From positions 3,629 through 67,628 of the forward strand of contig DAONFJ010000005.1 in the NCBI GenBank assembly GCA_035403545.1: 64,000 nt of DNA. The letters are read 5' to 3'. Position numbers and translations under genes: made by a program. Each line of letters opens with the position of its first letter. Position 1 is the first letter of the stretch. Source of the stretch: Spirochaetota bacterium. Its GTDB lineage: Bacteria > Spirochaetota > UBA4802 > UBA5550. A model generated the notes under the pieces. The model had not been told where the DNA came from, searched no databases, and was given only the letters and a program-made list of their open reading frames with translations. Below, in pieces: positions 17,507 through 36,103 of the stretch.

Positions 17507-17521
17507 CAGGATAAATTTTGT

Positions 17522-19315: not shown

Positions 19316-19322
19316 AATCTAT

Positions 19323-21023: not shown

Positions 21024-21042
21024 TTTAAACCGGAGAAAGAAT

Positions 21043-22284
21043 ATGCTCTATTACTACAGGGCCTTAAACAGCAAGGGAGACGAGGTTGCGGATTATATTG
21101 ATGCTCCTAATGAAACTGCTGCTAAACAGAAAATCAGAAAATCCGGACTTTATGTTACATTTATAAAAGATCAGGAAAAAATAAAGACATCTAATGCAAA
21201 ATTTAATGCCAGAGAATTTTTCGACAGGGCCCTTTTAAATTTTAGAAAAAATTCTGCTAAAAAACAGGTCGGCCTTTTTTCCAGGCAGCTCTCCACTCTT
21301 TTAAAAGCCGGTATGCCCCTTATGGTTGCTATAAATGACATTATTGAACAGATAGATAATAAAATTTTTAAGAATGTAATTATTGATATTAAAGAAAAAG
21401 TTGAAGGCGGTTCATCTTTTTCAAATGCCATCGCTCAACATAAAGAACTTTTTTCAGAGATGTATATTAATATGATCCGGGTCGGTGAAAGTCTAGGATC
21501 ACTTGATGAAGTTATCGCAAGGCTCTCCGAAATGGAAGAGAAGAAAACTTTCCTGAAAAATAAAATAAGGGCCGCTCTCTGGTACCCCGCTTTTATGCTT
21601 ACATTTTCTTCAATGATTGTAATTTTTTTAATGGTTAACATTATACCTACAATATCAGAGATTTTCGTTGAACAGAATAAAGAACTTCCATTTCCTACAA
21701 AAATTGTAATCGGTATAAGCAACTTTCTGACGCATTTCTGGATATTGATACCGGCAGGTTTAGCCATCTTATTTTATTTTTATAAAAGATATTCATCAAC
21801 TCCGGAAGGGAGAAAAAAAATTGATGAAGTAATGATGAAACTCCCTTTAGTCAGCAGGCTTTACAACAAAGTAATAGTTTATAGATTTACGCTTAATCTT
21901 GGAGTACTTCTTTCAAACAAAGTTGACCTTCTGAAATCTTTTGAAATAGTAAAGAAAATTGTGAATAATGTAATAGTAGAGGAAAAAATCGACAGCGCTT
22001 TGAAGAATATTCAGGAGGGTGCATCAATCGCCCAGTCTCTGAAAAAATGTGAATTTCTGCCAAAGCTTGTTATAGGTATGATTGCAGCAGGTGAAGCAAG
22101 TGATAAAGTTGACGAGATGCTGTTAAATATAGGGAACGTTTATGAAAACGAGATTGATATGGTTGTAACAAGTTTAACAGGGATGATTGAACCTCTCATA
22201 ATTATTATTATGGGTGTTATAATAGGAGTAATAGTGTTATCAGTTATGATGCCGATCATGGAAATGAATTTGATGGTTCAGTAA
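21043..22284 (+). CDS. gspF: Type II secretion inner-membrane platform protein GspF
   Basis: Duplicated GspF domain (FSRQLSTLLKAGMPL / FTLNLGVLLSNKVDL) with three TM segments. Confidence 0.92.
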   Translation: MLYYYRALNSKGDEVADYIDAPNETAAKQKIRKSGLYVTFIKDQEKIKTSNAKFNAREFFDRALLNFRKNSAKKQVGLFSRQLSTLLKAGMPLMVAINDIIEQIDNKIFKNVIIDIKEKVEGGSSFSNAIAQHKELFSEMYINMIRVGESLGSLDEVIARLSEMEEKKTFLKNKIRAALWYPAFMLTFSSMIVIFLMVNIIPTISEIFVEQNKELPFPTKIVIGISNFLTHFWILIPAGLAILFYFYKRYSSTPEGRKKIDEVMMKLPLVSRLYNKVIVYRFTLNLGVLLSNKVDLLKSFEIVKKIVNNVIVEEKIDSALKNIQEGASIAQSLKKCEFLPKLVIGMIAAGEASDKVDEMLLNIGNVYENEIDMVVTSLTGMIEPLIIIIMGVIIGVIVLSVMMPIMEMNLMVQ

Positions 22285-22320
22285 CCGATTATTGGGTATA
22301 TTTAAAAGAGGAGAACAATT

Positions 22321-22755
22321 ATGGAACGGATGAAAAAATTTGCAGGAAAGTTAAAACTGATTTTTCAGAATAACCAGGGCTTTACACTGCTTGAACTTAT
22401 GATTGTTATTACAATCATAGCCATCATCGGAGGATTTGCAGTATCAAAGTTTACCGGAGTGCTTGACAAGACTAAAGTAACTGCTGTTAAGACGGACATC
22501 GGGACTTTTGAAACTGCGCTTGATGCATACTACCTGAACCACAGTACATATCCTACATCTGAAGAAGGTTTGCAGAAACTTGCATCTGACGGATTAGTTA
22601 AGAATAAAAAAGAAACATTTACAGATCCGTGGAACAATCCATACCAGTACCGTTATCCCGGTAAATTCAGCGATGGGCCTGAAATCTGGAGCTTTGGAGC
22701 AGATGGCGCTGAAGGTGGCGAAGGGATCAACGCGGATATCAATAGCTGGGAATAA
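22321..22755 (+). CDS. gspG: Major pseudopilin GspG
   Basis: Prepilin site QG|FTLLELMIV and the GspG signature DPWNNPYQYRYPG. Strong SD (aGAGGAGaacaattATG). Confidence 0.9.
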   Translation: MERMKKFAGKLKLIFQNNQGFTLLELMIVITIIAIIGGFAVSKFTGVLDKTKVTAVKTDIGTFETALDAYYLNHSTYPTSEEGLQKLASDGLVKNKKETFTDPWNNPYQYRYPGKFSDGPEIWSFGADGAEGGEGINADINSWE

Positions 22756-22758
22756 TTC

Positions 22759-23295
22759 TTGTTCTATTATAATAATGATCAGGGCTTTACTCTTGTAGAA
22801 CTTGTTGTTGTAATGGCTATTCTTGCCGTTATGAGTGTGATCGCTTTGCCGAAACTCACCGGGATGCTCGGAGATCAGCGGAAGGAATCAGCAATTCTTA
22901 AAGCATATATCGAAGCTGTTACAGATGATTCTTTTGTTCACCATAAAACCAATTATCTATGTATTAATTTATCCAGGCCCGGTAACAAAAATTCTGAACT
23001 ATTTGATGATAGATATAATGATAATAATATTGTCAACGTGTATGAATTGAACGACGGGAAGTTTATTCAGAGTAAAAACAAAATATTGAGAGACCGGGGA
23101 TTCAGTTCATCTTTTATTCTTGATGAAGTTATACTTGAAGGTGGTAAAAGCATTAATTCCGGCAATGTACTCATACCTTTTTATTCCGACGGAACAAGTT
23201 CTGGATTTATACTGAAAATAATTTCCGGTGATTTAAAAATATTTGTTATCAAAAACAAAATCAGTAAAATGGTGCAGCTGGAAAATGAAATTTAA
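22759..23295 (+). CDS. gspH: Minor pseudopilin (GspH-like)
   Basis: Prepilin site QG|FTLVELVVV. TTG start 3 nt after the gspG stop. Assignment is by position. Confidence 0.6.
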   Translation: MFYYNNDQGFTLVELVVVMAILAVMSVIALPKLTGMLGDQRKESAILKAYIEAVTDDSFVHHKTNYLCINLSRPGNKNSELFDDRYNDNNIVNVYELNDGKFIQSKNKILRDRGFSSSFILDEVILEGGKSINSGNVLIPFYSDGTSSGFILKIISGDLKIFVIKNKISKMVQLENEI

Positions 23296-23701
23296 TTCTG
23301 CAGAAGATGGCATATCTGAAAATATTGCTCAAAAAAACGGCGGCTTTGTTCTGATTGAAGTCCTGATAGCTGTGACAATTCTTTCAGTGGTTCTCCTCAG
23401 TGTTTATTCAGGAATCTCTTCAGGTATAAATATTATTGGAAACAGTAAAAATTATACCCGTGCCATGATCATTGCCAAGTCACTGATGAATGAATTCCGC
23501 AGTGACAGCATGAAGGGAGTAGATATGAAAGATGCTCCCGTCGCCGGTTATCAGGATTTTAATTATGACCGGGTCAGTGAACGATATGAAAATCCAATGC
23601 TCGGCCCCCTTCCTATTAACAAAACAGAAATCAAAGTTAAGTGGAAATATAAAGGTGTTGAGAACCACTACGAATTAACCATGATATATCAGGTTAAATA
23701 G
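23285..23701 (+). CDS. gspI: Minor pseudopilin (GspI-like)
   Basis: GG|FVLIEVLIAVTIL prepilin-like N-terminus. I prefer the ATG at 23285 over the longer ORF starting at 23243. Confidence 0.6.
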   Translation: MKFNSAEDGISENIAQKNGGFVLIEVLIAVTILSVVLLSVYSGISSGINIIGNSKNYTRAMIIAKSLMNEFRSDSMKGVDMKDAPVAGYQDFNYDRVSERYENPMLGPLPINKTEIKVKWKYKGVENHYELTMIYQVK

Positions 23702-23722
23702 TATTCCGGCGGCAGACTATAT

Positions 23723-24364
23723 ATGAATTTTCTAAAGAAAAATGATGGTTTTACGCTTATTGAGATGCTTGTTGCTACGGCTGTATCATCAGTAATACTT
23801 GTGATGGTTTATACAGCATATGCATCAATAATCAGAAGTGTTAACCAGGGTAAAATTGCCTCGCAATATTATGAAGAGTTAAATCTTATTCTTAGAAGAA
23901 TCGATTCTGATCTTCTAAATACATATTGGAACGAAACCGCAAAAAATATTAGTTTTATTTCTGAAATTGAAGGCAATTCAAGCAGGCTTAATTTTGTCAC
24001 AGGTGAATATAAAAGCAACAGGATGATTCTTTCAGTGAAAGATAATTTTCCGTCATCTGATATTCACGAAGTCGGGTATTATCTCAAAAGAGATAACAAA
24101 ACCGGTAAAAATAATTTAATAAGAAGAAGTGAAATACACTATGACAGTTCTCCTCTTGATGGAGGAATTGAGGAAGTGATTTTCAGAAATGTTGAATCAA
24201 TCAGATTTGATTTTAAATATAGAAGCGACTGGATAGATACCTGGGATACAAGGGAGAAAAAAAGACTCCCTTCCGGTATAAAGACTACGCTCGTTGTCAT
24301 TGATCCTTATAATAATAAAGATACATATGAATTTTTTACGATATGTAATATGAGTTATGAATAA
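23723..24364 (+). CDS. gspJ: Minor pseudopilin (GspJ-like)
   Basis: DG|FTLIEMLVATAV prepilin site. Size and position fit GspJ. Confidence 0.6.
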   Translation: MNFLKKNDGFTLIEMLVATAVSSVILVMVYTAYASIIRSVNQGKIASQYYEELNLILRRIDSDLLNTYWNETAKNISFISEIEGNSSRLNFVTGEYKSNRMILSVKDNFPSSDIHEVGYYLKRDNKTGKNNLIRRSEIHYDSSPLDGGIEEVIFRNVESIRFDFKYRSDWIDTWDTREKKRLPSGIKTTLVVIDPYNNKDTYEFFTICNMSYE

Positions 24365-25571
24365 ATACATTAAGAACCTGATTAAAAATTATTATACCAG
24401 GAAAGAAATACTGGAGAATGACGGTGTCCGCCAATATATATTCAACAGTAAAGGTTATATACTTCTTATAGTATTGGTTATATCTGCATTTCTTGTCTCT
24501 TTTACTTCTGAATTCTTTTATCAGACTCATATATATATATCCTATATAAAAAGGTTTAAGTCAGATATTAATTCAGAATATCTTGCCTATTCCGGTTTTG
24601 AGCTGGGAAAAGCGATACTCGAGGTTGACCGGCTTGGGCTAGGCTCATCATTTATGCCGAATATTTCAAGCAATAGAAGTATAGATTCGTATAAAGATAT
24701 CTGGGCTCTTGATCTCCCTGAAATGAATCTTCCTGGCGGAACTGTAAAAATTAAGATTGAGGATGAAAATTCAAAGATCAATCTATCTGTATTGGGAACA
24801 GAATTTGTTCCGATGACACCATACTACGGAATAACACAACGTCTTATCGGCAGTATGGGATTTAATATTGATGTAGTAGACTGTATTATGGATTGGATTG
24901 ATCCTGATAGCGCCAGATTTCCCTATGGTGCGGAATCTGCAGATTATTATCTGAATCAGACTCCACCCTACTCCGCCCAGAATGAAGAAATGAAAAGTAT
25001 TGATGAACTGCTTCTTGTAAAACTGGTTACACCGGAAATTTTTTATGGAATTGGCGGCGGAAATCATGGTCTGGAAAAAAATCTGGTTGAAGATAATAAG
25101 GGAGATGTTACAATACCTCTTTATAAACTTGAGGATCTCTCCGCCGCAGGCACAGCTGCGGATGAAAACTCAAAATATAAGGAAAGTATTGAAAGAAAAA
25201 TCGGGAAAGAAAGAGACAGGGCTCTGAATAATTATTTTAGAGTTTACGGAGATAGCAGTAACTGGCTGGATGAGATTAATAAAATTAATATTAATACAGC
25301 CAGTTTCCGGGTATTATCTGCGCTTTCAAATGATATGAATGATGATATAGTAACAGAAATCATAAAGAAAAGGCAGATTCAGCCATTTACCAGTACCAGT
25401 GAGATTGACGAATTTATAAAAGATACTAATATTAAAAATAATTTAATTACGGTTAAATCCAGAATATTTAAAATAACCGTAACAGCTTCCGGTAACGAAG
25501 GATATTGCCGATTTATAACTTATTATGATAGAGATAATAAAAAAATATTATATTGTACAAGTGAACATTAA
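24357..25571 (+). CDS. gspK: Minor pseudopilin GspK
   Basis: Hydrophobic N-terminus without Glu+5, an SIDELLLV motif, and a helix-hairpin-helix-like NINTASFRVLSAL. About 400 aa. Confidence 0.7.
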   Translation: MNKYIKNLIKNYYTRKEILENDGVRQYIFNSKGYILLIVLVISAFLVSFTSEFFYQTHIYISYIKRFKSDINSEYLAYSGFELGKAILEVDRLGLGSSFMPNISSNRSIDSYKDIWALDLPEMNLPGGTVKIKIEDENSKINLSVLGTEFVPMTPYYGITQRLIGSMGFNIDVVDCIMDWIDPDSARFPYGAESADYYLNQTPPYSAQNEEMKSIDELLLVKLVTPEIFYGIGGGNHGLEKNLVEDNKGDVTIPLYKLEDLSAAGTAADENSKYKESIERKIGKERDRALNNYFRVYGDSSNWLDEINKININTASFRVLSALSNDMNDDIVTEIIKKRQIQPFTSTSEIDEFIKDTNIKNNLITVKSRIFKITVTASGNEGYCRFITYYDRDNKKILYCTSEH

Positions 25572-25589
25572 GAGAGAAGGAGTGCAGGA

Positions 25590-27194
25590 TTGTTTGATAA
25601 TATAGCTTCAATAGATATAGGGTCCTCTTCTATTAAATTAATTAAAGCTAAAAGAGGGCTAAAGAAATTTGAACTTATTTCTGCGGTTATAGAAATTATA
25701 GACCGGGAATTACTTCATAGTGATTATACAACTGCTGTTGAAAATGCTCTTCATAATATTCTTGAAAAAGAAAATCTCTCTGAGTTTAAAATTGTTACAT
25801 CAATGCCGGCGGAACGTATTTTACTGCGAAATATAACTTTCCCATTCAATGATATTACTAAAATTACACATGCAATACCTTACGAGGCGGAAGAGAACAT
25901 ACCTTACCCTCTTGATATGGTAACGTTTGATTTTCAGACAATACCATCTGAAAATATGGACAGCAGAAGTGTTATACTTGCAGCGGTAAACAAGGATTAT
26001 CTTATAAGTATAATTGAAACATTTAAAAAATCCGGATTGAATCCTGTTTTTTCCGGAATTGAAGCCAATTCAATTCTCAGGTGCTATGAATATTTTAATT
26101 CTGTGAATGATGAAACTGTTCTGCAGATAGACATCGGTGATATAAAAACAGTTGTTAATATTGTGAGAGACAGTTCTTTATTGTATACCCGAAGTATTCC
26201 TTCAGGTTTAGGTCGTTTAATAGAAAAAATATCCCGAATACTTAATATCTCTTTAAATGAAGCTCAAAGAGTCCTGGAATCCTTGGATCTTGACCTCACA
26301 TCATTTGATTCGAACCTGAAAATAAATAATTTTAAAAACCTGAATATAAGTAAACCAAAATTAAAACTGATTTTTCAGGAAGCAAGCCAGCTGGTTGCAG
26401 ATATTATGAGTGATATAGCATTTACAATAAAAGCCAGTGGTGAATATACGGATTACTCCAGGTTCAGCAGAATAATAATTACCGGCGGCGGTTCTAACCT
26501 CAAGGGCGTATCTAAAATTATCTCAGATGAATCCGGACTTCCCGTAGTGTTCATGCCTTTTTTAAACGGATATCCTGACGCAGACATTAGAAGCAGATTT
26601 TCTGTATGCCTTGGAAATCTTCTTGTTTACATGAATAACCGTAATACATCGATAAATTTTTTAAAGGGTGATTTTACTCCCGATTCCGGCCCCGGATCAT
26701 TAAAGAAGTTTTATCTCCCGTTATTTTTCGTTTCGCTGACAATATTGTTTCTACTGATAAACTTTTCGAGTACAATTTATTTTGTAGTTAAAAGCAATAA
26801 TTACACAGAGACAATCATGCAGCAGAAATTTAAAAAGTATTTTAACGTACAAACTGTCCCTAAAGATCCTGTTAAAGAAGCAAACATTATACTGTCAAAT
26901 GAAAAGAAAGAACTTTCAGTATTGAAAGAACTACTGGGCGAAGAAACCCTTTTTATCCCGACACTTAACCTTGTAATTAAAAATTTTTCCGGAGCCGAAG
27001 GTTTTGATATTAAAAAAATAAATTACGACGGTAAAAGCATGGTTATAGAGGGAGAAATAAGGCGATCCGGAGATCTGGAGGATTTCAAAAAAAATCTGCT
27101 CAATTCCGGGGAGTTCGAAAGTGTGACAATTAATATCAGAGATACAAGCAGTACCAGAAGTTTGTTCACTATATCAATAAAGCAGAAAATCTGA
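25590..27194 (+). CDS. gspL: GspL-like assembly protein (actin-fold PilM-like cytoplasmic domain + TM + periplasmic domain)
   Basis: IDIGSSSIKLIKA and ITGGGSNLKG actin/FtsA-fold motifs, one TM (LPLFFVSLTILFLLINF), and a TTG start after a GAAGGAG SD. Confidence 0.6.
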   Translation: MFDNIASIDIGSSSIKLIKAKRGLKKFELISAVIEIIDRELLHSDYTTAVENALHNILEKENLSEFKIVTSMPAERILLRNITFPFNDITKITHAIPYEAEENIPYPLDMVTFDFQTIPSENMDSRSVILAAVNKDYLISIIETFKKSGLNPVFSGIEANSILRCYEYFNSVNDETVLQIDIGDIKTVVNIVRDSSLLYTRSIPSGLGRLIEKISRILNISLNEAQRVLESLDLDLTSFDSNLKINNFKNLNISKPKLKLIFQEASQLVADIMSDIAFTIKASGEYTDYSRFSRIIITGGGSNLKGVSKIISDESGLPVVFMPFLNGYPDADIRSRFSVCLGNLLVYMNNRNTSINFLKGDFTPDSGPGSLKKFYLPLFFVSLTILFLLINFSSTIYFVVKSNNYTETIMQQKFKKYFNVQTVPKDPVKEANIILSNEKKELSVLKELLGEETLFIPTLNLVIKNFSGAEGFDIKKINYDGKSMVIEGEIRRSGDLEDFKKNLLNSGEFESVTINIRDTSSTRSLFTISIKQKI

Positions 27195-27204
27195 GTGATA
27201 AAAA

Positions 27205-27720
27205 ATGATAAATCTTAACGATAGAGAAAAAAAATTATTATTTATTCTTGCAGGTATACTCATTACCGGCTTTGTTTATTATTTTATTCTTTCCCCGATA
27301 ATTGAATTTAAAAAAAATTCTGATGATATTTACAATAAGAATAGATTAAAAATAAATAAGCTTGATGATATATACTCTGAGTACAGGGATATTATTACAG
27401 AAAAAAGTAAATTGAGTGCAGTTGCCTCCGGAAACAGCGGCATCGGTTCGATGGTTGACGAGATCGCTTCGAGCTTAAAAATAGCAAGTAATAAAGTATA
27501 TTTGAAAGAGAATCCGGGAATTGTCCAGAATAGCATCCAGAAAATGACCACTGAAATAAAATTTGAGGGAGTACCTGTTAAAGAGCTTTTAGAATTTTTA
27601 AATAGAATTGAAAATTCTAATACACCGCTAAAAATTCAGAGCCTCGTAATTTACTCGGGAATAAAAGAAAGAAGCAGGTATGACGCCGTAATTACAATCG
27701 TGAGTTTGAGCAAGAGATAA
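27205..27720 (+). CDS. gspM: GspM-like bitopic protein
   Basis: Single N-terminal TM, ~170 aa. Assignment is by position after gspL. Confidence 0.45.
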   Translation: MINLNDREKKLLFILAGILITGFVYYFILSPIIEFKKNSDDIYNKNRLKINKLDDIYSEYRDIITEKSKLSAVASGNSGIGSMVDEIASSLKIASNKVYLKENPGIVQNSIQKMTTEIKFEGVPVKELLEFLNRIENSNTPLKIQSLVIYSGIKERSRYDAVITIVSLSKR

Positions 27721-27721
27721 A

Positions 27722-28594
27722 ATGAAAATAAATAAAGAACTGATAAAATCGATAATTAGTGATTTGCCTTCAAAAATAAAGCAGGTTACCGGAACAATTT
27801 ATAATTTACCGCATTCAGGTAAATATCTTTTACTCTCGCTAGTTTTATTAATTTTATTTTTAATAATGTCATTCCCGTATGATTTTCTAATTAAAAAAAA
27901 GATTTACGGACTCGAAGGTAAATCATTCCGATCTATTGAATTTTCAGGATTCGATTTCAGTATTTTCAGTGAAACTTATATTGATAATTTAATTATTGTT
28001 TTGAATAACAGCAATGAGATAACCTGTAAAAACGCTATAGTTAATTTAACTCTTAATCCGGTCACTTTATTCATCAATAACAAATTAAAGTCAGATTTTC
28101 AGTTCGATTCCCTGAAATACAGCGGGAAAGATTTTGAGTTAATCTTTAATGTTAACGGAAATATGAATCTGACACTCGATAAACAAACCAGTATACCCAA
28201 AGACGGGCCTGTGAAAATAATCATAAGTGATTCAAATATTAAACTTAATAATATCAGTATACCTGGGCCTATGGGCCCGCTCCCGCTGAAAATAGAATCC
28301 GTTAATATTCAGAGCGGTAATATTGACTCTGTTATAACAAATGGAATCCTGAAATTTAACTCTTTTAAATTAACAGGGAGCGATATTTCCTGTGATATAA
28401 CCGGTTCCATTGAATTAACAAATAATTCCAGAATCGATTTAATCGTAAACATCGATTCGGAGTCGGCTGTACTTGATCAGTATAAAGACGTGCTGGCCTC
28501 TTTTATAAAAAATAATATCCTTTCACTAAGAATTAAGGGAACTCTGTCAAAACCCGAATTGGCAATAAACAGTGCAGAAAAAAATGAAAATTGA
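27722..28594 (+). CDS. gspN: GspN-like bitopic protein
   Basis: Single TM and a beta-rich periplasmic region. It is the last gene of the cluster. Assignment is by position only. Confidence 0.35.
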   Translation: MKINKELIKSIISDLPSKIKQVTGTIYNLPHSGKYLLLSLVLLILFLIMSFPYDFLIKKKIYGLEGKSFRSIEFSGFDFSIFSETYIDNLIIVLNNSNEITCKNAIVNLTLNPVTLFINNKLKSDFQFDSLKYSGKDFELIFNVNGNMNLTLDKQTSIPKDGPVKIIISDSNIKLNNISIPGPMGPLPLKIESVNIQSGNIDSVITNGILKFNSFKLTGSDISCDITGSIELTNNSRIDLIVNIDSESAVLDQYKDVLASFIKNNILSLRIKGTLSKPELAINSAEKNEN

Positions 28595-30317
28595 AATGGC
28601 AAAACATTCCGGCTTTTGTATGGGAGTCAGAAAAGCAATTCTTAGAATAGTTGATGAACTAAATTCATCTGAAGAAAAAATTTATATGTACGGCCCTCTG
28701 ATTCACAATCCACAGACAATTGAAGTTCTTAAAAACCGTGGACTCATAACAATTAATTCTCTTGATGATTTGAATAACAGGCAGATTGCAATCAGAACTC
28801 ATGGTATTCCGATTGACGAGAACAAAAGGATAAGGGCAAACGCGTTACGTACAATCAATTTAACCTGTTCAAGAGTTGCCAGAGTACAATCTATCATAAA
28901 GAAATATTCAGGTGCCGGTTATTATACAATAATAATCGGAGATAAAGACCACGCTGAAGTAACCGGATTAAAAAGTTATGCCTGTGCAGGTGTACATGTA
29001 GTATCTAATGTGAATGACATAAAAGGAATTGCTGAAGCCGAAAAATATATTATTGTATCCCAAACTACACATGAACGAAATCAGTTTGACCAGCTTGTAT
29101 CAGAAATATCAAAAAAATTTAAAAACGTATATGTAATAGATACTATATGTGACTCAACAAGGTTAAGGCAGGACGATGTAAAAAACGGAATTATAAAAGG
29201 AATAGACACCCTTGTAGTTGTTGGAGGGAAAAATTCAGCTAATACATCACGTCTTTTAAAAATTGGTATCGATAATGGAATAAAATCATTTCATATAGAA
29301 ACGGATGCTGAATTAAAAAAAGAGGATTTTAAAGATAGTAAATATGTTCTTGTTACGGCAGGTGCCTCTACTCCCGGCTGGATAATTAATAATGTTTTGG
29401 AAAGACTTTATATAATAAAAAATGAAAGCAGTAATTTTCTGGTAAAATCTGTAAAACATTATATTGAATTATTGATAAGAAGCAATATTGTTTCTTCTGC
29501 GGCATCAATGTTTATGGTCTTATTAGCACAACTTTACGCCGGAATCTCATTTGATATTCAGTATGGCATAATTGCTGCACTTTATATATTTGTAATGTAT
29601 TCAGTTAATAACTATCTCGACCGGAGCTTCCTTATAAAAAGCAATTCATATAAATATAAAATTTATGATAAATATGGATCTTATCTGCTGTTTTCATCGA
29701 TCATTTCATTTATCGCGTCTTTATATATTGCAATGAGTATCTCGTTGTCCCTGACACTTTTATTATTAGTTCCATACATTTTCGGATTAATCTATTCTAC
29801 TCCGGTTATTAAAAATATTGTAAAAGGTATTAATTTTAACCTTCTTAAAAAAATTTATAACACAAAGATTGTCACCGGTTTAGGCTGGCTTGTTGCAGTA
29901 ATAATAATTCCGTATCACGGCAATAGTGTATCATGGCAAATATATCTTTCAGCAGGTTTGTTCTTCTTTATGTTTGTTTTCATCAGGCATCTGATAATTG
30001 ATTTTGTTGCATTTCAGGGAGATCTGATACTCGGGCGGGATACGCTGCCGACATGGCTTGGTGTAAAAAATGTAATAACACTATCTTATGTGACTATACT
30101 GCTAAGTTCTTTAGTCTTTATAATTGTATCAATTACATCAGGCATGTCTCTCTTCTTATTGCTTCTCATATGCATTATTTACTATGTTTTACTGCTGAAA
30201 AAAATACAAAAAACAGATTATCTTATTTCGCTGAGATATGAATTTATAGTCGACTTAAATTATCTGATTATGGCAATTCTTTATTTTGTGATCAGATTTT
30301 CACCAGCTTTACTTTAG
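28572..30317 (+). CDS. ispH: Fusion: 4-hydroxy-3-methylbut-2-enyl diphosphate reductase (IspH) + polytopic UbiA-like prenyltransferase domain
   Basis: aa 1-285 carry the IspH motifs GFCMGV, LTCSRV, DKDHAEV, TICDSTRLRQ and GGKNSANTS. aa ~300-581 carry 8-9 hydrophobic helices with NNYLDR and D-x6-DLILGRDTLPTWLG. The true start may be the ATG at 28584 or 28596. Confidence 0.8.
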   Translation: MQKKMKIEMAKHSGFCMGVRKAILRIVDELNSSEEKIYMYGPLIHNPQTIEVLKNRGLITINSLDDLNNRQIAIRTHGIPIDENKRIRANALRTINLTCSRVARVQSIIKKYSGAGYYTIIIGDKDHAEVTGLKSYACAGVHVVSNVNDIKGIAEAEKYIIVSQTTHERNQFDQLVSEISKKFKNVYVIDTICDSTRLRQDDVKNGIIKGIDTLVVVGGKNSANTSRLLKIGIDNGIKSFHIETDAELKKEDFKDSKYVLVTAGASTPGWIINNVLERLYIIKNESSNFLVKSVKHYIELLIRSNIVSSAASMFMVLLAQLYAGISFDIQYGIIAALYIFVMYSVNNYLDRSFLIKSNSYKYKIYDKYGSYLLFSSIISFIASLYIAMSISLSLTLLLLVPYIFGLIYSTPVIKNIVKGINFNLLKKIYNTKIVTGLGWLVAVIIIPYHGNSVSWQIYLSAGLFFFMFVFIRHLIIDFVAFQGDLILGRDTLPTWLGVKNVITLSYVTILLSSLVFIIVSITSGMSLFLLLLICIIYYVLLLKKIQKTDYLISLRYEFIVDLNYLIMAILYFVIRFSPALL

Positions 30318-31218
30318 GGCCTGTAAAAATTTTTAACTCATTTTCAGCAGTATAGATATCTCCGTCCATAGTGTACTCAAAAATTCCTTTCTGTTTTATT
30401 AAAATAGATTTTCCAAATACATTTAAATATTTCGGAGATTTAATTCTTTTACCGGTTCTAATTTTATTCAGGTATCTTAAAATTCCTCTCGGGTTCATTC
30501 CCAGAACAATAACCTGAAATGTTCCGTCAGATTGAACTGCTTCAATTAAAGGTGAGAATCCCATGCCTATATGCTCTACTGTTCCGGCAAGGATTCCCGA
30601 TACAGGATTAATCAGAACCTTTTTCCCGTCAATAAAAACGGCCTGCTCGGTTAACCTGAAAATTTCACCGTCTTTAATGTTAAGAATCCCCTCCTTCGCG
30701 CCCATGAATGCAACCTGAAGGTTCCTGTAAAGACCTTTTTCCTTACCTGAATATGCCTTATTCAGAAAATTAGTAACAAGTCCTGTACCGAAGAGAAAAC
30801 AATATTTATCCAATATTTTTATTGTATAACGATCTTCTGTTTTTATAATTTTTTCTTCCCCGATTCGTTTCAATAATCGTTTTAACAATGCCGGACCTCG
30901 ACCTTTTAATTTTACAGATCTGGCAATATTATCCATTGTTCCTTCTTTAAGAATAAGTACTGGAGGCACAGGCTCCGGATGAAAAGCATTTATCAGTTCA
31001 CTTAAAACCAGGTGAATAGTACCATCTCCTCCGCCTATGCAGATGTAATCAAGCTTATTGGATCTATATTTTTTTGCCGTTTCTTTCAGTTGTTCAATAT
31101 TTTCCGGAGTGCTGATTATGACGTTTTCTGAATTGTGATCCATATATGTACCTATAGAAGCTCTGCCGGTTCTGAACTTTTTTGCATTGGGATTTATAAT
31201 TACACCTATTTTTTTCAT
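30292..31218 (-). CDS. Diacylglycerol-kinase-fold lipid kinase (YegS/BmrU family)
   Basis: KIGVIINPNAKK...ICIGGGDGTIHLV...GTMDNIAR. The 3' end overlaps the ispH-fusion 3' end by 26 nt. Confidence 0.7.
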   Translation of the reverse strand: MKKIGVIINPNAKKFRTGRASIGTYMDHNSENVIISTPENIEQLKETAKKYRSNKLDYICIGGGDGTIHLVLSELINAFHPEPVPPVLILKEGTMDNIARSVKLKGRGPALLKRLLKRIGEEKIIKTEDRYTIKILDKYCFLFGTGLVTNFLNKAYSGKEKGLYRNLQVAFMGAKEGILNIKDGEIFRLTEQAVFIDGKKVLINPVSGILAGTVEHIGMGFSPLIEAVQSDGTFQVIVLGMNPRGILRYLNKIRTGKRIKSPKYLNVFGKSILIKQKGIFEYTMDGDIYTAENELKIFTGPKVKLVKI

Positions 31219-31520: not shown

Positions 31521-32810
31521 ATGATTAATGATATTCTAAATAAGTATTTGAACAATGAAAAATCAGGGGAAGTAACCGGTTATTCCATGGACGGTATTAC
31601 CAGACTTCTGAACCATCTTCGTAATCCGCATAAAAATTTCAAATCATTGCATATTGCCGGTACAAACGGAAAAGGTTCGACGGCCTTTATGCTTTCAACA
31701 ATTCTCGAAAAATCAGGATACAAAACAGGGCTTTATACTTCACCTCATCTTATTACAATTAATGAACGTATAAAGATAAATTCCTGTGACATAGACGATT
31801 CCCGCCTGTACAAATATATAAGTGATATTGACTGTATTGTCGGCAATGATAAAACTTTATCGCCAACATATTTTGATATATTGACTGCCGCTGCTTTTGC
31901 ATATTTCAGTGATGAATCAGTTGATATTGCTGTAATAGAAACAGGCCTTGGCGGAAGGCTGGATTCCACAAATGTGGTCACACCTGAAATATCCATAATT
32001 ACTGATATTTCAATGGATCATATTCACATACTCGGTGATAAAATTTCAGACATAACAAAAGAAAAGTGCGGTATTATCAAACCGGCTATCCCTGTAATTA
32101 CCTCTAATACTGATCCCGAGATTATTAGTATAATAGAACAATACTCCAGTATAAATGAGTCAAAGCTATATTTGTATAATCGTGATTTTTTTACACAAAA
32201 TATACGAAGAGATAATAATCATTTTGTATTTGATTATTCAGCGGATGATACTATTCTTCCCGATATCAGTCTTTCACTTTTTCCTGTGCATCAGGTGAAA
32301 AACAGTTCCGTTGTAATAACTGCATTATCATGTTTAAAAACGAATGGTTTTCCGGCTATTTTGTATTCTGCAATATACAGAGAACTTAAAAAAATACAAG
32401 TCCCGGGAAGATTTCAAATACTGCGAGCTGATCCATTAATTATTTATGATCCTGCACATAATTATGATTCACTGAAAAACCTGCTAAATGGCCTTGAAAC
32501 ATACTACTCTGACAAAAAGAAAGTCTTTATATTTTCGATGATGAAAGATAAGGCAGATGCTAAAACACTCGAGTTGCTGACAGATCTGGATGTTGTATAT
32601 TTTCTTCTGGATGATGAGCGGGCCTATAAACCTGATAATAAGTTTAAATTAATTATCTCTGACGAAAATATTATAGTTGATATTTTGCAAAAAGTAGATG
32701 ATATAAATAGTATGATTATATTCACAGGGACATTCAGAATTTATAATCATGCAGTTAGAATTACAAAAAATTTTCAAAAACATGATTTGAATATTCGGGA
32801 TAAAGTATGA
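31521..32810 (+). CDS. folC: Folylpolyglutamate synthase / dihydrofolate synthase
   Basis: HIAGTNGKGST P-loop, SPHL, ETGLGGRLDSTNV, and a Mur-ligase C-terminal domain. Confidence 0.88.
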   Translation: MINDILNKYLNNEKSGEVTGYSMDGITRLLNHLRNPHKNFKSLHIAGTNGKGSTAFMLSTILEKSGYKTGLYTSPHLITINERIKINSCDIDDSRLYKYISDIDCIVGNDKTLSPTYFDILTAAAFAYFSDESVDIAVIETGLGGRLDSTNVVTPEISIITDISMDHIHILGDKISDITKEKCGIIKPAIPVITSNTDPEIISIIEQYSSINESKLYLYNRDFFTQNIRRDNNHFVFDYSADDTILPDISLSLFPVHQVKNSSVVITALSCLKTNGFPAILYSAIYRELKKIQVPGRFQILRADPLIIYDPAHNYDSLKNLLNGLETYYSDKKKVFIFSMMKDKADAKTLELLTDLDVVYFLLDDERAYKPDNKFKLIISDENIIVDILQKVDDINSMIIFTGTFRIYNHAVRITKNFQKHDLNIRDKV

Positions 32811-33733
32811 CAACAAAAGATGATCTGCTGGCTGAACTTATAGAAACGAAATATTTAATTCAGAATAATAATTTTAATCCGGAAATAGTAAAGAATACCT
32901 TACAAAAAATAGATTCAGTCCCATTCAATTCGTCTTTAAATAATTTAACTGATAAAAGTAATATGATTAAAAGTTTTCTGATTACTTTTAATGCAAACAA
33001 TTTTTCAGACCTTACATTATTATTCAATACGTCTTCAGATGAAGTGCGGGTAATTGAGTATGCAGGGAGTGAAATAATTTTAAATGAGTTTAATAACCTG
33101 ATCAAAACTGATTTAAAATTTTATAAAGATATTGATAAAATAAAAGTAAAGGAAAACAGTTTCCGTATTTTTTTTGAGTCAATGGAGAATGATAAGGGTA
33201 TATATACTGTTTTAACGATCACAGAGTCAGTTTTATTTAAACCGAGTAAGTTCCATATGCTTTGTGACATTATTCTGGATGTTATAAGATCGACTAATAT
33301 GTCGCACGGTTCAGTGTTTAATGATTTATTTGAAGATACTGCAATTGAAATTAATAGTTATATTTCTGCTAATGATATCACTGATTCTGAATTCTATATT
33401 TTTAAATTTGAAAATATTTACGATTTTTTTCTAAAAATGGGTCTGGAGATAATAATTGAACTTTCCGAAACAATAAAGAATAAATTAAGGGAAGTTTTTG
33501 GTGAAAGGTCAGCTGTTTTCAGGTTCTCTCTTTCAGAGTATATTGTAATATCGTCTGAAAATTTTTCTACGGATATCCGATCATCAGATTTAAATAACAG
33601 CAGCATGCTTAATTTTAATTATAAAGGTATAGTATTAAAACACCGCTGTATCAGAATACCTTATAAAAATAATCAATCGATCTATGATATTTTTGAAAAT
33701 ATTTATTCGATTAACGTGTATAATGGAAAATAA
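32807..33733 (+). CDS. Hypothetical protein; C-terminal half may be a fully degenerate GGDEF-like fold
   Basis: Start overlaps the folC stop (ATGA). FKFENIYDFFLKMG...AVFRFSLSEYIVIS resembles the DxDxFKxxND...RxGGDEF layout, but all catalytic residues are replaced. Confidence 0.35.
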   Translation: MTTKDDLLAELIETKYLIQNNNFNPEIVKNTLQKIDSVPFNSSLNNLTDKSNMIKSFLITFNANNFSDLTLLFNTSSDEVRVIEYAGSEIILNEFNNLIKTDLKFYKDIDKIKVKENSFRIFFESMENDKGIYTVLTITESVLFKPSKFHMLCDIILDVIRSTNMSHGSVFNDLFEDTAIEINSYISANDITDSEFYIFKFENIYDFFLKMGLEIIIELSETIKNKLREVFGERSAVFRFSLSEYIVISSENFSTDIRSSDLNNSSMLNFNYKGIVLKHRCIRIPYKNNQSIYDIFENIYSINVYNGK

Positions 33734-33754: not shown

Positions 33755-36103
33755 TCATTCGCCGATGTTAACATTTTTTTTCCTCGTAATTAAATCAGCA
33801 AATTTTTTTATCAGATCGTGTTTTAATCCAACATAATAATCATCTTTTTTAATTATAACTGAATGTTTTTGGAGAAATTTTAAACCTTCATTGAAAATAT
33901 CCTTTTCGGATTTGTTAATTATAATTCTATTATCCGTTACATATTTATTAATTAATTTTTTCAACCTTGAAGTCTTTATTATAAAATTATTTTCTAAGAT
34001 AATTCCGGAAATTATATAATGAGGCAGTATAATATCATCAAGCACCCATATCTTCTGAATCAGCTCGGCTATTGAAATCTGCAAGTGAGATTGTTTTGTG
34101 TATTCGGATAAAAAAACCGGCGATGAAAAATTGATCGCAACCTGTTCAGTAAATAATTCTTTAATCTCCGATTCGTCCAATCTGTTTCTATAAGTAATTT
34201 CAGCGGGTATTAGAACTACTTCTGTTGTTTCTTTAAACATCACGCTGTTCAGCATATTAAAAAATTTGTCATTTGGAACTGCCTGAGCAGACTCTGTCCC
34301 CTGCAGTTCAGGAAAATATAAAAAAGGAACTCCATGGCTTGCAAGTATAGAAACGTACTCCATAATAGATTCAAGATACAGTTTGTTATTTAATTTTGAT
34401 TGGTGTATTATAAATCCGCCGCACTTCCGTGTAAGATATTTAATAAATTTATTTTTCAGTAATTCCGATGGAACAAAAAATCTTGGTACAGGAAGAATAT
34501 ATTGGCTGATCGCATAAGAGTAATAAATGCAGTCATTTACATTTTTAAATTTAGCAGTATAAATCGTATTAGCACTATTTCTCAAACTATGTAAATTATG
34601 AAAATCGCCGGTGATAGTGATACTGTTTCTATTCCCGATCAGTTTTTTCCAGTAATATTTGAAAGTAATAAAATTAACAAATAGTCTGTAAAAAAATGGA
34701 TTATAGTAATCCATGGTTTCTTTTAAATATAAATTTATTATTTTTTTTAAAGTTTTTTCCGAGTTATTCGATACAAATTCAGACAGCAGTTTCAATTCAT
34801 TTTTTAATAAAACAGTATGCTTAATTTCATTTTCCTGAAGCATGCATTTTAGATTGGAAATGATTTCATTTTCTGATTCACCTGTTACGGTATTGTTTGT
34901 TTTATGTTTCTCAATTAATTGCTTCAATATCAGTTTTTTAAATGCTTTCCCTCTAAGTGTTTCCAGCCCTTTCTTTTTATCTTTTACATGGATTTTAGTA
35001 TTATTATAAATCTCTTCAAAATTATCCGGATTTTTTATCGTTTCAATTAACAGGGACGGTTCTTTTTTATTTAACAGTACTTCATAAAGAGATCTGTAAA
35101 CAGGAATTGAAATGGAATTCCTGTCGGCGAGTTCAATTAAAGGTTCAATCGCATAAGCACCCTCAGCTAGATAATGAAGCTTTTTACTCATCTTCTCGAG
35201 AACGTACTCGGGTTTAAACCGCAGATAAATTTTATCAGTCCAGGAGAGAATCGTACCTTTTTCAACTATCTGCTTTGCAATATCTTTTCCAAATCTTCTG
35301 TTTCTGCTATGTTCACTCAATGCTGTTGCTACAAGGTCACCGGTTCCTGAAATATCAATTATAGTTTCAGTTCGCGCTCCAAGAAAGTTTCCCAGACGTA
35401 TCATTTCCTTTAAGGATTCAGCAATGAGTGCTCCTTCAAGATTATCACCGCATTGAGGCAGCTTGGTTATCATCCCGGCAGCTATCGCAGCCGGATTTTT
35501 TAATGTACCGCCAAGATCAACTCCGATTATATCATCAGTTTCTCTGCATTGAAGATAGTAGCAATTCAGAAGTTCTGAAAAAAATTTTCTGTCTCCCGCA
35601 TGATGTCCTGCTACTGAAACTGTAGTATGGAAATATTTCACAACTTCTTCAGCATGGCTCGGACCGGATATCCCTACTACCCTGTTGCTATACCTGGGAA
35701 AAATTTTTGATATTGCCTGTGATATGGTCAATATTTCATTGTTGATTTTACAGAAACCTTTTGTCAGGTATGCAAGTGGTATATCTTCTTTCAGCAATCT
35801 TGCTATTTTTTGTATTGTATCCGGTATTATTTTTGACGGGGTTGCAATTATGATTCCTTCAGTGTTGAGCAGTGATTCCCTCAAGTGGGTTGTAGCTTTT
35901 ATATTGTAGGGGAGTTTGATTCCTGGAAGAAATTCACTATTCAGATTTTTTGAGTTTATAGAGTTCGCGGTTGATTTTTCATATGACCACATTTTTACAA
36001 TTGTACCGGGATTGTTCTCTGCGATAACTTTTCCAATCGCAGTTCCCCATGAGCCGGCACCAATAATGGTTATTTGTTTATTCTTGTTGTATAATTCTGG
36101 CAT
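33755..36103 (-). CDS. gpsA: Fusion: NAD(P)H-dependent glycerol-3-phosphate dehydrogenase (GpsA) + PlsB-like acyltransferase-fold domain
   Basis: aa 10-345 read ITIIGAGSWGTA, GPSHAEEV, DLGGTLKNPAAIAAG, SRNRRFG, AEG. aa ~500-650 align to PlsB blocks (FIIHQ / NKLY / FPELQGTES / VVLIPAEITY). Confidence 0.75.
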   Translation of the reverse strand: MPELYNKNKQITIIGAGSWGTAIGKVIAENNPGTIVKMWSYEKSTANSINSKNLNSEFLPGIKLPYNIKATTHLRESLLNTEGIIIATPSKIIPDTIQKIARLLKEDIPLAYLTKGFCKINNEILTISQAISKIFPRYSNRVVGISGPSHAEEVVKYFHTTVSVAGHHAGDRKFFSELLNCYYLQCRETDDIIGVDLGGTLKNPAAIAAGMITKLPQCGDNLEGALIAESLKEMIRLGNFLGARTETIIDISGTGDLVATALSEHSRNRRFGKDIAKQIVEKGTILSWTDKIYLRFKPEYVLEKMSKKLHYLAEGAYAIEPLIELADRNSISIPVYRSLYEVLLNKKEPSLLIETIKNPDNFEEIYNNTKIHVKDKKKGLETLRGKAFKKLILKQLIEKHKTNNTVTGESENEIISNLKCMLQENEIKHTVLLKNELKLLSEFVSNNSEKTLKKIINLYLKETMDYYNPFFYRLFVNFITFKYYWKKLIGNRNSITITGDFHNLHSLRNSANTIYTAKFKNVNDCIYYSYAISQYILPVPRFFVPSELLKNKFIKYLTRKCGGFIIHQSKLNNKLYLESIMEYVSILASHGVPFLYFPELQGTESAQAVPNDKFFNMLNSVMFKETTEVVLIPAEITYRNRLDESEIKELFTEQVAINFSSPVFLSEYTKQSHLQISIAELIQKIWVLDDIILPHYIISGIILENNFIIKTSRLKKLINKYVTDNRIIINKSEKDIFNEGLKFLQKHSVIIKKDDYYVGLKHDLIKKFADLITRKKNVNIGE

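Follow-up and report, generated by a model that had tools for sequence, protein, structure and literature searches.

The window analyzed here, i.e., a 64-kb stretch of DNA (64,000 nucleotides) from an uncultured Spirochaetota bacterium, encodes in one frame a complete IspH domain followed by a polytopic membrane domain of predicted UbiA fold, and by sequence comparison its product is a divergent spirochaete member of a known IspH-UbiA fusion family. The original prediction of such an in-frame fusion is borne out by profile searches and an AlphaFold2 model. The novelty it implied for the architecture fails, however, as 47 IspH-UbiA "Rosetta stone" fusions of unknown function were described in sulfate reducers in 2015 (Rao et al., Chem Sci 2015, PMC4746011); this is not a new kind of system. 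What is added here is that (i) the family reaches Spirochaetota, where public databases annotate the protein as plain IspH, (ii) by comparison with stand-alone relatives, the fused domains collectively show a reduced Asp-rich motif 1, shifting the working hypothesis from an ordinary prenyltransferase to a non-canonical or regulatory UbiA-fold domain, and (iii) conserved residues are pinpointed as targets for mutation. IspH is an essential enzyme and drug target, and to our knowledge the coupling of MEP-pathway output flux to membrane isoprenoid use is poorly understood; the permanence of the IspH-UbiA-fold fusion across hundreds of anaerobic lineages speaks for a direct link in function between the two parts. 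Features of the locus are collected in Table 1.

Table 1. Fusion gene, its predicted parts and its neighbours, in window coordinates; residues are numbered from the GTG of the open reading frame (ORF).
Feature	Position	Strand	Basis
Whole IspH-UbiA fusion ORF	28572..30317	+	581 codons from GTG, plus stop; ORF list
IspH (LytB) domain, residues 5-284	28584..29423	+	Pfam LYTB, TIGR00216, 3DNF, Foldseek
Predicted linker helix, residues ~289-303 (SNFLVKSVKHYIELL)	29436..29480	+	DSSP, model, translation
Predicted UbiA-fold membrane domain, residues ~304-581	29481..30314	+	AlphaFold2, Foldseek, PF01040
Degenerate first Asp-rich motif, residues 346-361 (NNYLDRSFLIKSNSYK)	29607..29654	+	Translation, chlorophyll synthase alignment
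Second motif, residues 477-491 (DFVAFQGDLILGRDT)	30000..30044	+	Translation, DGGGP synthase and chlorophyll synthase alignment
gspJ, gspK, gspL (PilM-like), gspM and GspN-position gene (type II secretion)	23723..28594	+	Pfam
DAGK_cat/YegS-like lipid kinase, convergent	30292..31218	-	Pfam DAGK_cat, E 2.4e-14

A single uninterrupted frame spans the ORF, as read from the ORF list and its translation. The gene probably starts at the ATG at 28584, for a product of 577 aa, because its homologs all begin "MKI...", which corresponds to M5 of the GTG-start ORF. That the fusion might be an assembly or sequencing artefact, i.e., a lost stop codon or a frameshift merging two neighbouring genes, has next to no probability. 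Nothing was seen that speaks for it, the origin in a single metagenome-like window being the sole ground for suspicion, and the frame is continuous in 30 of 31 independent spirochaete assemblies with upstream DNA (the sole exception, L025, being truncated), while all 75 of the database representatives that reach 540 aa, among the best 150 of 404 clusters, are IspH-fused. The linker helix between IspH and the first transmembrane helix (residues 285-299 by DSSP in the 577-aa model) is modelled at a pLDDT of 93-95, and the two halves bear the mark of co-evolution, with their pairwise identities correlated across 5,565 pairs (Pearson r = 0.80). Conservation of the frame across independent assemblies thus rules out, for practical purposes, an artefact or a chance ORF. 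Because synonymous sites are saturated in most pairs (dS >1.5 or undefined), dN/dS is usable for the pair L002/L004 only, in which the IspH half has an omega of 0.04 and the membrane half one of 0.13; membrane-half values are about 0.08-0.13. Judged by these coding-sequence comparisons, both halves are shown to be under purifying selection and to have evolved together as one gene.

The N-terminal half matches Pfam LYTB (PF02401) over residues 7-279 (E 4.4e-78; 262.7 bits against a threshold of 24.5), covering profile positions 1-266 of 267, and passes the NCBIfam equivalog TIGR00216 for IspH with 254 bits against a cutoff of 187.85. Its top solved-structure match is Aquifex IspH 3DNF (E 2.5e-58), on which Foldseek also places the AlphaFold2 model (E 1.6e-19, target TM-score 0.86), with a target TM-score of 0.83 against E. 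coli IspH entries; the model displays the trefoil, three-domain alpha/beta fold of IspH. Cysteines for the [4Fe-4S] cluster stand at C16 (GFCMGV), C99 (LTCSRV) and C193 (TICDST), accompanied by the catalytic residues H45, H77, H127, E129 (the HAEV acid), T166, S222, N224 and S266, and the whole set is invariant across 70 fused proteins. We take the corresponding E. coli residues to be C12, C96, C197, H41, H74, H124, E126, T167, S225, N227 and S269. The cysteines and the HAEV acid lie where they had originally been placed, and the call of a complete IspH at residues 1-285 is upheld by TIGR00216, Pfam LYTB and the catalytic residues; in terms of its residues, the domain is shown to be equipped with all that a working HMBPP reductase requires.

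For the C-terminal half, the AlphaFold2 model (pLDDT 94.7, pTM 0.91) shows nine long helices with cap helices in loops 2-3, 4-5 and 6-7. After the IspH entries, Foldseek ranks 13-26 comprise 14 matches, all to UbiA-superfamily membrane proteins with a probability of 1.00 (4TQ3-6, 7BPU, 6M31, 4OD4/5 and 8DJK among them; target TM-scores 0.50-0.64), and on this model the C-terminal half has the UbiA fold. Hydropathy and K/R-rich loops would agree with canonical UbiA topology. The window protein reaches just 20.3-22.6 bits (E 7e-5 to 4e-4) on Pfam UbiA (PF01040), under the gathering score of 34.2. Homology to UbiA is nonetheless supported by transitivity, since PF01040 is matched at E <= 1e-3 by 63 of the 70 full-length members of the family (best E 7e-19).

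A profile built from spirochaete C-terminal domains retrieved, at E <= 1e-3, 404 clusters of proteins grouped at 50% identity; it ranks IspH-fused proteins of ~575 aa from Syntrophobacteria, Deltaproteobacteria and Nitrospirota above most stand-alone UbiA proteins, and the source names of family members comprise these three groups and Spirochaetota. Retrieval by this profile, together with the shared loss of D(+8) from motif 1, the shared G-(R/K)-E-T and the r of 0.80 between halves, argues for a common origin with the Desulfobacterota-type fusions. The C-terminal domain is accordingly shown, at the level of sequence, to be homologous to the fusion domains of Desulfobacterota, Syntrophobacteria and Nitrospirota, rather than to represent a separate fusion with another UbiA branch.

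The fusions of sulfate reducers, the only hosts named in the 2015 study (PMC4746011), resemble the window protein in their N-terminal IspH, 9-TM UbiA-like C-terminal domain and length of ~575-600 aa, and both halves are homologous to it. In that study, the membrane domains were assigned to the CDD class PT_UbiA_5, and Rao, O'Dowd, Li, Wang and Oldfield, who did not succeed in expressing a full-length protein, made the same product-channelling argument as the original prediction while also considering a role in localisation or sensing (PMC4746011). Within the literature searched, the post-2015 record on IspH-UbiA function comprises only citations of that paper. The architecture is common and has already been described, which counts in part against the original prediction on its own terms. 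The window protein differs in its host, an uncultured Spirochaetota/Leptospirales-like clade, and in a membrane half that is about 18-33% identical to those of non-spirochaete members.

Shared across the fused family is the signature N-x3-(D/E) ... D-x2-x-x3-D-x3-G-(R/K)-(E/D)-T; the canonical first motif has the form N-D-x-x-D-x-x-x-D-x-x-N-E-P-x-R. In an ungapped alignment with chlorophyll synthase (N-D-F-Y-D-R-D-I-D...N-E-P-Y-R), the window's first motif, N346-N347-Y-L-D350-R-S-F-L354, keeps the Asn and the central Asp and lacks two of the three aspartates; its N-E-P-x-R region reads S-N-S-Y-K, and the UbiA pattern N-D-x-x-D-x-x-x-D is not matched. The loss extends to the family. Among 148 fused rows, the commonest residues at +1 are N (66), R (46), H (11), Q (5), Y (5) and I (4), with Asp absent among these, and D(+8), which we take from the ApUbiA and E. 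coli UbiA literature to be an Mg/diphosphate ligand in canonical enzymes, is Asp in just 12. In part of the spirochaete clade, D350 is itself replaced by M, T or another non-acidic residue, and a Leptospiraceae-like sub-branch (L026-L028, L030, L032, L034) has zero conserved acids in motif 1.

The second motif is better preserved. D477-F-V-A480-F-Q-G-D484-L-I-L-G488-R-D-T491 satisfies D-x-x-(D)-x-x-x-D followed by G-x-x-(S/T), and it aligns to DFEDMEGDKKEGVISLP of DGGGP synthase and DFKSVEGDRQLGLKSLP of chlorophyll synthase. Position 480 is Ala, where most non-spirochaete members have Asp; this is not disqualifying, because chlorophyll synthase, an active enzyme, likewise lacks the middle Asp of motif 2. 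Downstream, the fused family carries G-R-(E/D)-T, or G-(R/K)-(E/D)-T across the family. The original prediction had noted NNYLDR at 346-351, D477-x6-D484-LILGRDTLPTWLG and the missing third Asp of motif 1, where L354 now stands; its numbering is right for the GTG-start ORF, and the claimed match to the UbiA Asp-rich motifs survives for motif 2 and was overstated for motif 1, from which two aspartates are gone.

Conservation is concentrated in these motif stretches instead of being generic over the helices. All 143 of 143 fused rows have D484, and 142 of 143 have G488, with N346, D477, Q482, R/K489, E/D490 and T491 near-invariant across phyla. Polar conservation in the membrane domain peaks at N346, Y408, K432, R472, D477, Q482, D484, R489, E/D490 and T491, which fall in stretches that align with UbiA motif regions. 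Among spirochaete proteins, QGDLILGR(E/D)TL is nearly invariant at a domain identity of just 32-77%, as is the stretch QGDLILGRETLP. In the spirochaete clade, N358 replaces the D/E of N-(D/E)-P-x-R, and A480 replaces Asp. Set against other members, spirochaete proteins have N without exception at position 347 (R/H/N elsewhere), as well as N at 358 (D/E elsewhere) and A/G at 480 (Asp elsewhere), a comparison that is partly circular in that the groups were set by the motif residues themselves, P0089 and P0160 having been included in this way; the locus-based set L001-L036 is the unbiased spirochaete sample. These alignments yield two new points: across the entire fused family, two of the three aspartates of motif 1 are gone, while stand-alone relatives retain the third aspartate, and the spirochaete clade has lost two additional acidic residues.

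The nearest unfused relatives found are stand-alone, PRK13591-like UbiA proteins (e.g., P0057, P0067, P0084, P0138, P0154, P0158; E ~1e-9 to 1e-13). These share the nine-helix size, at about 285-310 aa, and differ in being independent genes that keep D(+8) and carry G-(V/I)-x-T rather than G-(R/K)-E-T. On PRK13591, whose cutoff is 238, they reach 54-108 bits and are therefore without a family name of their own; they also match DGGGP synthase and ChlG models.

A spirochaete-only profile gave no matches among PDB sequences; a broader family profile was then used, and its top solved match is DGGGP synthase of Methanocaldococcus jannaschii (6M31, 6M34, 7BPU; 6M31 at E 2.4e-6). Foldseek also recovers this enzyme (probability 1.00, target TM-score 0.53-0.56), at a structural-alignment identity of just 14-15%, and its motif 2 aligns with that of the window column for column (D-x-x-D-x-x-G-D-x-x-x-G); unlike the window protein, it is a stand-alone archaeal enzyme with a full N-D-I-F-D-I-E-I-D. 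Chlorophyll synthase, ChlG (9SAU, 9SAS), is a weak match (E 0.07) that nevertheless aligns without gaps over both motif regions. It resembles the spirochaete clade in lacking the middle Asp of motif 2 (D-F-K-S-V-E-G-D) and departs from it in having a complete N-D-x-x-D-x-x-x-D and N-E-P-x-R. By structure, the top match of the membrane half is AfUbiA of Archaeoglobus fulgidus (4TQ3-4TQ6, with GPP, DMAPP and Mg2+; E 1.2e-4, target TM-score 0.63), which is stand-alone and undetectable by sequence. Its structures establish that a UbiA fold can hold C5 and C10 diphosphates; its Asp-rich motifs are presumably canonical.

These relationships bear on whether the membrane half is a canonical quinone or aromatic prenyltransferase, of UbiA, MenA or MqnP type, fused to IspH and feeding respiratory quinone synthesis. 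The weak Pfam UbiA match and the motifs cited in the original prediction would favour this, yet the NCBIfam UbiA, MenA and MqnP models go unmatched, the best membrane-half matches being PRK13591 and ChlG; among solved structures, DGGGP synthase and chlorophyll synthase come closest in sequence; and the NDxxDxxxD motif is missing. In addition, sulfate reducers carry a separate UbiA/MenA gene (PMC4746011). We consider a quinone role highly improbable and reject it on the NCBIfam, solved-relative and motif evidence.

Type II secretion genes lie directly upstream of the fusion gene, the GspN-position gene overlapping its start, and the order gspJ-K-L-M-N precedes it in all 30 spirochaete loci with enough flank. 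The 3' end of the lipid kinase overlaps the fusion ORF by 26 nt; such a kinase adjoins the fusion gene in 19 of 37 related spirochaete genome loci, and also in L038/L039, and in spirochaetes the gene is often followed by FolC as well as by a lipid kinase in convergent orientation. The arrangement resembles conserved housekeeping synteny more than a pathway. While the spirochaete gene ends a type II secretion operon, the six loci from other phyla have Dus upstream (3/6), a GT2 glycosyltransferase downstream (2/6) and otherwise unrelated genes. No consistent partner or acceptor pathway emerged from the spirochaete loci or these six, and the window holds no further isoprenoid gene and no second IspH or UbiA-like gene that we could find. 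A promoter and terminator scan around the fusion gene returned fewer sites than in shuffles.

We propose, with about even confidence, that the product, a member of the described fusion family, is a membrane-tethered IspH joined to a non-canonical UbiA-fold domain that binds a prenyl diphosphate. IspH depends on the assembly of its Fe-S cluster and on reduced ferredoxin or flavodoxin, for which reason it must be cytoplasmic, and UbiA enzymes have a cytoplasmic N-terminus and an active site facing the cytoplasm; the IspH domain would therefore be seated on the cytoplasmic side, directly above the mouth of the membrane domain. Because its most conserved polar residues align with UbiA motif regions, the membrane domain may still bind an Mg-diphosphate ligand; the latter would be a prenyl diphosphate, either the IPP/DMAPP that IspH itself supplies or one formed from it. 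The prenyl group would most likely be transferred to a hydroxyl-bearing membrane acceptor; O-prenyl transfer is favoured because DGGGP synthase and chlorophyll synthase, the closest relatives with a characterised activity, O-prenylate their acceptors. Such chemistry would depart from the canonical, in that the carboxylates D(+1) and D(+8) are missing from motif 1 of the fused family, which instead has a conserved G-(R/K)-E-T after motif 2. Prenyl transfer by the fused domain, canonical or otherwise, is put forward as a hypothesis that goes beyond what the sequence establishes, because of the absent motif-1 aspartates, S-N-S-Y-K and the loss of D350 within the clade. We counted against prenyl transfer the loss of D(+8), N358/A480, the sub-branch without a motif-1 acid and the sub-threshold Pfam UbiA score, and also the inconsistent neighbourhoods and the want of other isoprenoid genes in the window.

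Possible, if on the doubtful side, is a pseudoenzyme that has lost the transfer chemistry and acts as an anchor or scaffold, e.g., holding IspH near a membrane redox partner or downstream polyprenyl-consuming enzymes, or as a prenyl-diphosphate sensor that modulates IspH. The family-wide shortage of two aspartates in motif 1, where stand-alone relatives keep N-x3-D-x2-(E/D)-D, points in this direction, as do the two further acidic positions lost in spirochaetes, the members without any motif-1 acid and the want of a conserved acceptor-pathway neighbour in the loci examined; a localisation or sensing role was also considered by Rao et al. (PMC4746011). A mere anchor, however, would not preserve D484, G488, N346, D477, Q482, R/K489, E/D490 and T491, nor QGDLILGRETLP across the spirochaete clade. 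The low omega of the membrane half (0.08-0.13) likewise denotes strong constraint, which is compatible with ligand binding and hence with the sensor version.

Beyond the non-canonical prenyl transfer that we favour, it is conceivable, though we regard it as unlikely, that IspH-fused UbiA-fold domains form a functionally distinct branch, in which D(+1) and D(+8) were lost and G-(R/K)-E-T acquired after fusion. Such domains might directly employ the C5 products of IspH (DMAPP or IPP, perhaps even HMBPP) for O-prenylation of a membrane lipid, or might sense prenyl diphosphates and thereby gate the flux through the final step of the MEP pathway. In the spirochaete clade, with two further carboxylates lost and QGDLILGRETLP kept almost unchanged, this shift would have reached its extreme.

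IspH is also the N-terminal part of another two-part protein, the IspH-RPS1 fusions of Clostridia and Fusobacteria, whose partner, unlike that of the window protein, consists of soluble ribosomal protein S1 repeats (PMC4746011; NF000907). On NF000907, whose cutoff is 624 bits, the window protein reaches 274 and is not a member, the alignment covering model positions 1-283 of 671.

The observed fusion is confirmed and its interpretation is supported in part. The gene joins two domains in one uninterrupted frame, and the claim that its N-terminal half is a complete IspH is borne out at the sequence level. Pfam LYTB matches residues 7-279 (E = 4.4e-78), the NCBI equivalog TIGR00216 reaches 254 bits (cutoff, 187.85), and the closest solved relative is Aquifex IspH (3DNF; E = 2.5e-58, 39% identity). 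The three cluster cysteines are present together with the His/Glu/Thr/Ser/Asn set of HMBPP-binding residues of E. coli IspH; all are invariant in 70 aligned fused proteins, and in Foldseek the model overlays crystal structures of IspH at target TM-scores of 0.78-0.86. The motif positions first assigned are correct for the GTG-start ORF, both in the IspH half (GFCMGV, 14-19; LTCSRV, 97-102; HAEV, 127-130; TICDST, 191-196) and in the membrane half (NNYLDR, 346-351; D477; D484), and this numbering is kept here. Since the homologs compared all open with MKI(E/T/S)(M/L)A..SGFCMGV, equivalent to M5 of the window ORF, the ATG at 28584 is the likelier start, giving a protein of 577 aa whose gene would share 11 nt with the end of the preceding one, stop codon included.

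The C-terminal half is modelled as a UbiA fold, divergent in sequence. Alone, it scores 20-23 bits on Pfam UbiA, i.e., below the gathering score of 34.2, and 31 bits on the NCBIfam model PRK13591 ("prenyltransferase"); a profile of close relatives had no matches among PDB sequences. Although the window protein itself remains under the Pfam UbiA threshold, its membership in the superfamily is settled by (i) PF01040 matches in 63 of 70 full-length family members at E <= 1e-3 (best, 7e-19), (ii) a confident AlphaFold2 model built on the 70-member family alignment (mean pLDDT 94.7, pTM 0.91), which beyond residue 300 shows nine long helices and, in addition, short cap helices, and (iii) a Foldseek comparison with the PDB, in which IspH entries come first and the 14 matches at ranks 13-26 all belong to the UbiA superfamily (probability 1.00; target TM-scores 0.50-0.64), namely AfUbiA (4TQ3-6), DGGGP synthase (7BPU, 6M31), ApUbiA (4OD4/5) and UBIAD1 (8DJK). 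Canonical UbiA topology has the N-terminus inside and the loops after helices 2, 4, 6 and 8 in the cytoplasm. Hydropathy and the spread of Lys/Arg over the loops agree with this arrangement, as an Fe-S enzyme placed N-terminally in the cytoplasm would require. A short, confidently modelled helix tethers IspH to the UbiA-fold domain. IspH would sit on the cytoplasmic face, above the opening of that domain, and, judging by the pTM (0.91), the interface between the two may be a defined one.

The supposed novelty of the architecture fails, since Rao et al. (2015; PMC4746011) had already described 47 IspH-UbiA fusions, mainly from Desulfobacterales, with the abstract and conclusions placing all fusions in sulfate-reducing anaerobes. 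There, the C-terminal domain was assigned to class PT_UbiA_5, had nine predicted helices and no known function; the membrane domain was proposed to localise IspH, which would give IPP/DMAPP locally, and the full-length fusion protein could not be expressed. The argument that the last MEP step is tethered to prenyl transfer was also in print, for a fusion that is fairly widespread. Spirochaetes are not mentioned in that paper, and a search of the literature found no functional work on IspH-UbiA after 2015. The window protein is a divergent spirochaete representative of this known, functionally uncharacterised fusion family; new here are the phyletic extension, i.e., a coherent spirochaete clade that carries the fusion, and the anatomy of its UbiA motifs.

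When one genome from each GTDB species was scanned, 37 loci emerged, all in metagenome-assembled genomes (MAGs), of which 36 are labelled Spirochaetota, Spirochaetes or Leptospirales. Within the clade, membrane-half identity to the window protein is 32-77%, and the proteins are publicly annotated as plain IspH; the nearest relatives (80-81% protein identity) come from the 4.3-Mb contig CAXXHB010000003.1 of a Spirochaetota MAG and from the 4.9-Mb chromosome OW818666.1, which is metagenome-derived. The one exception, a 1.9-kb contig (CAZDZB010000279.1) binned as "uncultured Christensenellaceae," probably reflects misbinning and not a true presence in Firmicutes, as the 36 other loci are all spirochaetal. 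When 1.84 billion cluster representatives were searched exhaustively with the profile, 404 matched at E <= 1e-3; among the best 150 of these, all 75 that reach 540 aa or more have IspH at their N-terminus, and the source names of more distant matches are Syntrophobacteria, "Deltaproteobacteria" and Nitrospirota. That an assembly frameshift had artificially joined two genes is accordingly excluded for practical purposes, its probability being negligible: beyond these 75 database matches, the frame is kept at 30 of the 31 loci with upstream DNA (a single locus, L025, is truncated), identity in one half tracks identity in the other over 5,565 pairs (Pearson r = 0.80), and both halves are under purifying selection (in the sole pair unsaturated at synonymous sites, omega is 0.04 over IspH and 0.13 over the membrane half).

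With a profile of the family, alignments were obtained to both DGGGP synthase (E = 2.4e-6) and chlorophyll synthase. Motif 2 of the fused family, D-x-x-D-x-x-G-D-x-x-x-G-(R/K)-E-T, corresponds column for column to D-F-E-D-M-E-G-D-K-K-E-G in the former and D-F-K-S-V-E-G-D-R-Q-L-G in the latter, and motif 1 aligns ungapped with N-D-F-Y-D-R-D-I-D-A-I-N-E-P-Y-R of chlorophyll synthase. Residue states were counted over 148 fused rows, with positions relative to the motif 1 Asn (N346 = 0). This Asn is kept in 136 of 148; position +1 is N in 66, R in 46, H in 11, Q in 5, Y in 5 and I in 4, Asp lying outside the six commonest; position +4 is D in 79 and E in 30; and position +8 is D in only 12 (L in 59, A in 20). 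The last Asp of motif 2, D484, is invariant (143/143), and the G-(R/K)-(E/D)-T that follows is conserved in fused proteins. Of the two Asp-rich UbiA motifs first proposed, motif 2 holds, with D477 and D484 in place; D(+1) and D(+8) of motif 1 are mostly gone family-wide, the absence of D(+8) from the window protein having been pointed out at the outset. Stand-alone relatives from the same profile search are independent genes with best named matches to PRK13591, DGGGP synthase and ChlG models; they retain N-x3-D-x2-(E/D)-D and have G-(V/I)-x-T where the fused family has G-(R/K)-E-T. This contrast marks the missing D(+8) and the acquired G-(R/K)-E-T as signatures of the IspH-fused family.

As read from the alignments, motif erosion is specific to the fused family and has gone furthest in the spirochaete clade, where N347 is invariant, N358 replaces D/E in N-(D/E)-P-x-R, the middle Asp of motif 2 has become A480 or G480, and, in a Leptospiraceae-like sub-branch, D350 has become M, T or another non-acidic residue; QGDLILGR(E/D)TLP is almost invariant throughout the clade. 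This erosion provides a concrete, testable lead on what the fusion described in 2015 does. Separately, the nearest unfused relatives of the domain (P0057, at 1859-2737 of its locus L046, with P0067, P0084, P0090, P0105, P0138, P0154, P0156 and P0158; ~285-310 aa) have N-x3-D-x2-(E/D)-D intact, score far below every NCBIfam cutoff (best PRK13591, 54-108 bits against 238) and, judged by sequence, are an unnamed stand-alone UbiA subfamily.

The most conserved polar residues of the membrane domain fall in stretches aligned with the UbiA motif regions. The domain may thus still bind a Mg-diphosphate ligand via N346, D350, D477 and D484, putatively with the basic residues K432, R472 and R489, and would probably prenylate a hydroxyl-bearing membrane acceptor with an altered ligand set, by analogy with its nearest characterised relatives, which are O-prenylating enzymes; a quinone prenyltransferase is highly improbable. 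To a membrane-tethered IspH with a prenyl-diphosphate-binding, probably O-prenylating UbiA-fold domain, we assign an even chance. The main rival, a non-catalytic anchor or prenyl-diphosphate sensor, draws support from the eroded motif 1 and the lack of a conserved partner gene and is possible, if rather unlikely; as a pure anchor, however, it would leave unexplained the invariance of D484 and neighbouring residues across phyla.

Features of the window discussed in the text
Feature	Coordinates	Strand	Remarks
ORF without Pfam family	13645..15888	-	747 aa; threshold E <= 1e-5
T2SS genes	16673..28594	+	PDZ/GspC-like, GspD onward to GspJ-K-L-M and GspN-position gene; scan excluded 19323..23701
GspN-position protein	27722..28594	+	290 aa; only match very weak, C-terminal end of YhdP (E = 0.0056)
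Fusion ORF	28572..30317	+	single ORF, 581 codons from GTG
DAGK_cat/YegS-like lipid kinase	30292..31218	-	converges on fusion gene; 3' ends overlap by 26 nt
ORF without Pfam family	32807..33733	+	308 aa; threshold E <= 0.01; downstream of FolC
GpsA plus C-terminal region	33755..36103	-	782 aa; complete GpsA at residues 10-353; ~430-aa C-terminal region
ORF without Pfam family	41668..43227	-	519 aa; threshold E <= 1e-5
ORF without Pfam family	49451..50509	-	352 aa; threshold E <= 1e-5

The window is ordinary chromosomal housekeeping DNA (RecJ, ArgS, CinA, a complete T2SS operon, the fusion gene, a lipid kinase, FolC, a GpsA-acyltransferase fusion, RpoD and DnaG), with no other isoprenoid genes in it. 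The fusion gene directly follows gspJ-K-L-M-N in all 30 spirochaete loci whose flanks are long enough, at identities as low as 44%, with FolC and often the convergent DAG-kinase-like lipid kinase downstream. That an isoprenoid enzyme, its start lying within the last T2SS gene, should be co-transcribed with a secretion system is odd. The GspN-position product of that last gene lacks any significant Pfam domain and is conserved in every related locus (26-71% identity). Of the 37 related spirochaete genome loci, 19 have the lipid kinase next to the fusion gene, as do L038 and L039; this adjacency might be a sign that the substrate or product is a lipid. Among the non-spirochaete fusion loci, a Dus (tRNA dihydrouridine synthase) gene precedes IspH-UbiA in the Desulfobacterota-type L040 (8001-10714) and L041 (3392-5980), where a family-2 glycosyltransferase (279-308 aa) abuts or overlaps it on the other side; Dus is also upstream in L043, and the pairing was not seen in L042, L044 or L045. 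GpsA is the NAD-dependent glycerol-3-phosphate dehydrogenase; the C-terminal region of the 782-aa protein has a weak, sub-threshold Acyltransferase match (PF01553, residues 501-601, 19.6 bits). This protein, conserved in many related spirochaete loci, may represent another fusion that joins successive steps, in phospholipid synthesis. The 308-aa ORF is likewise conserved in related loci.
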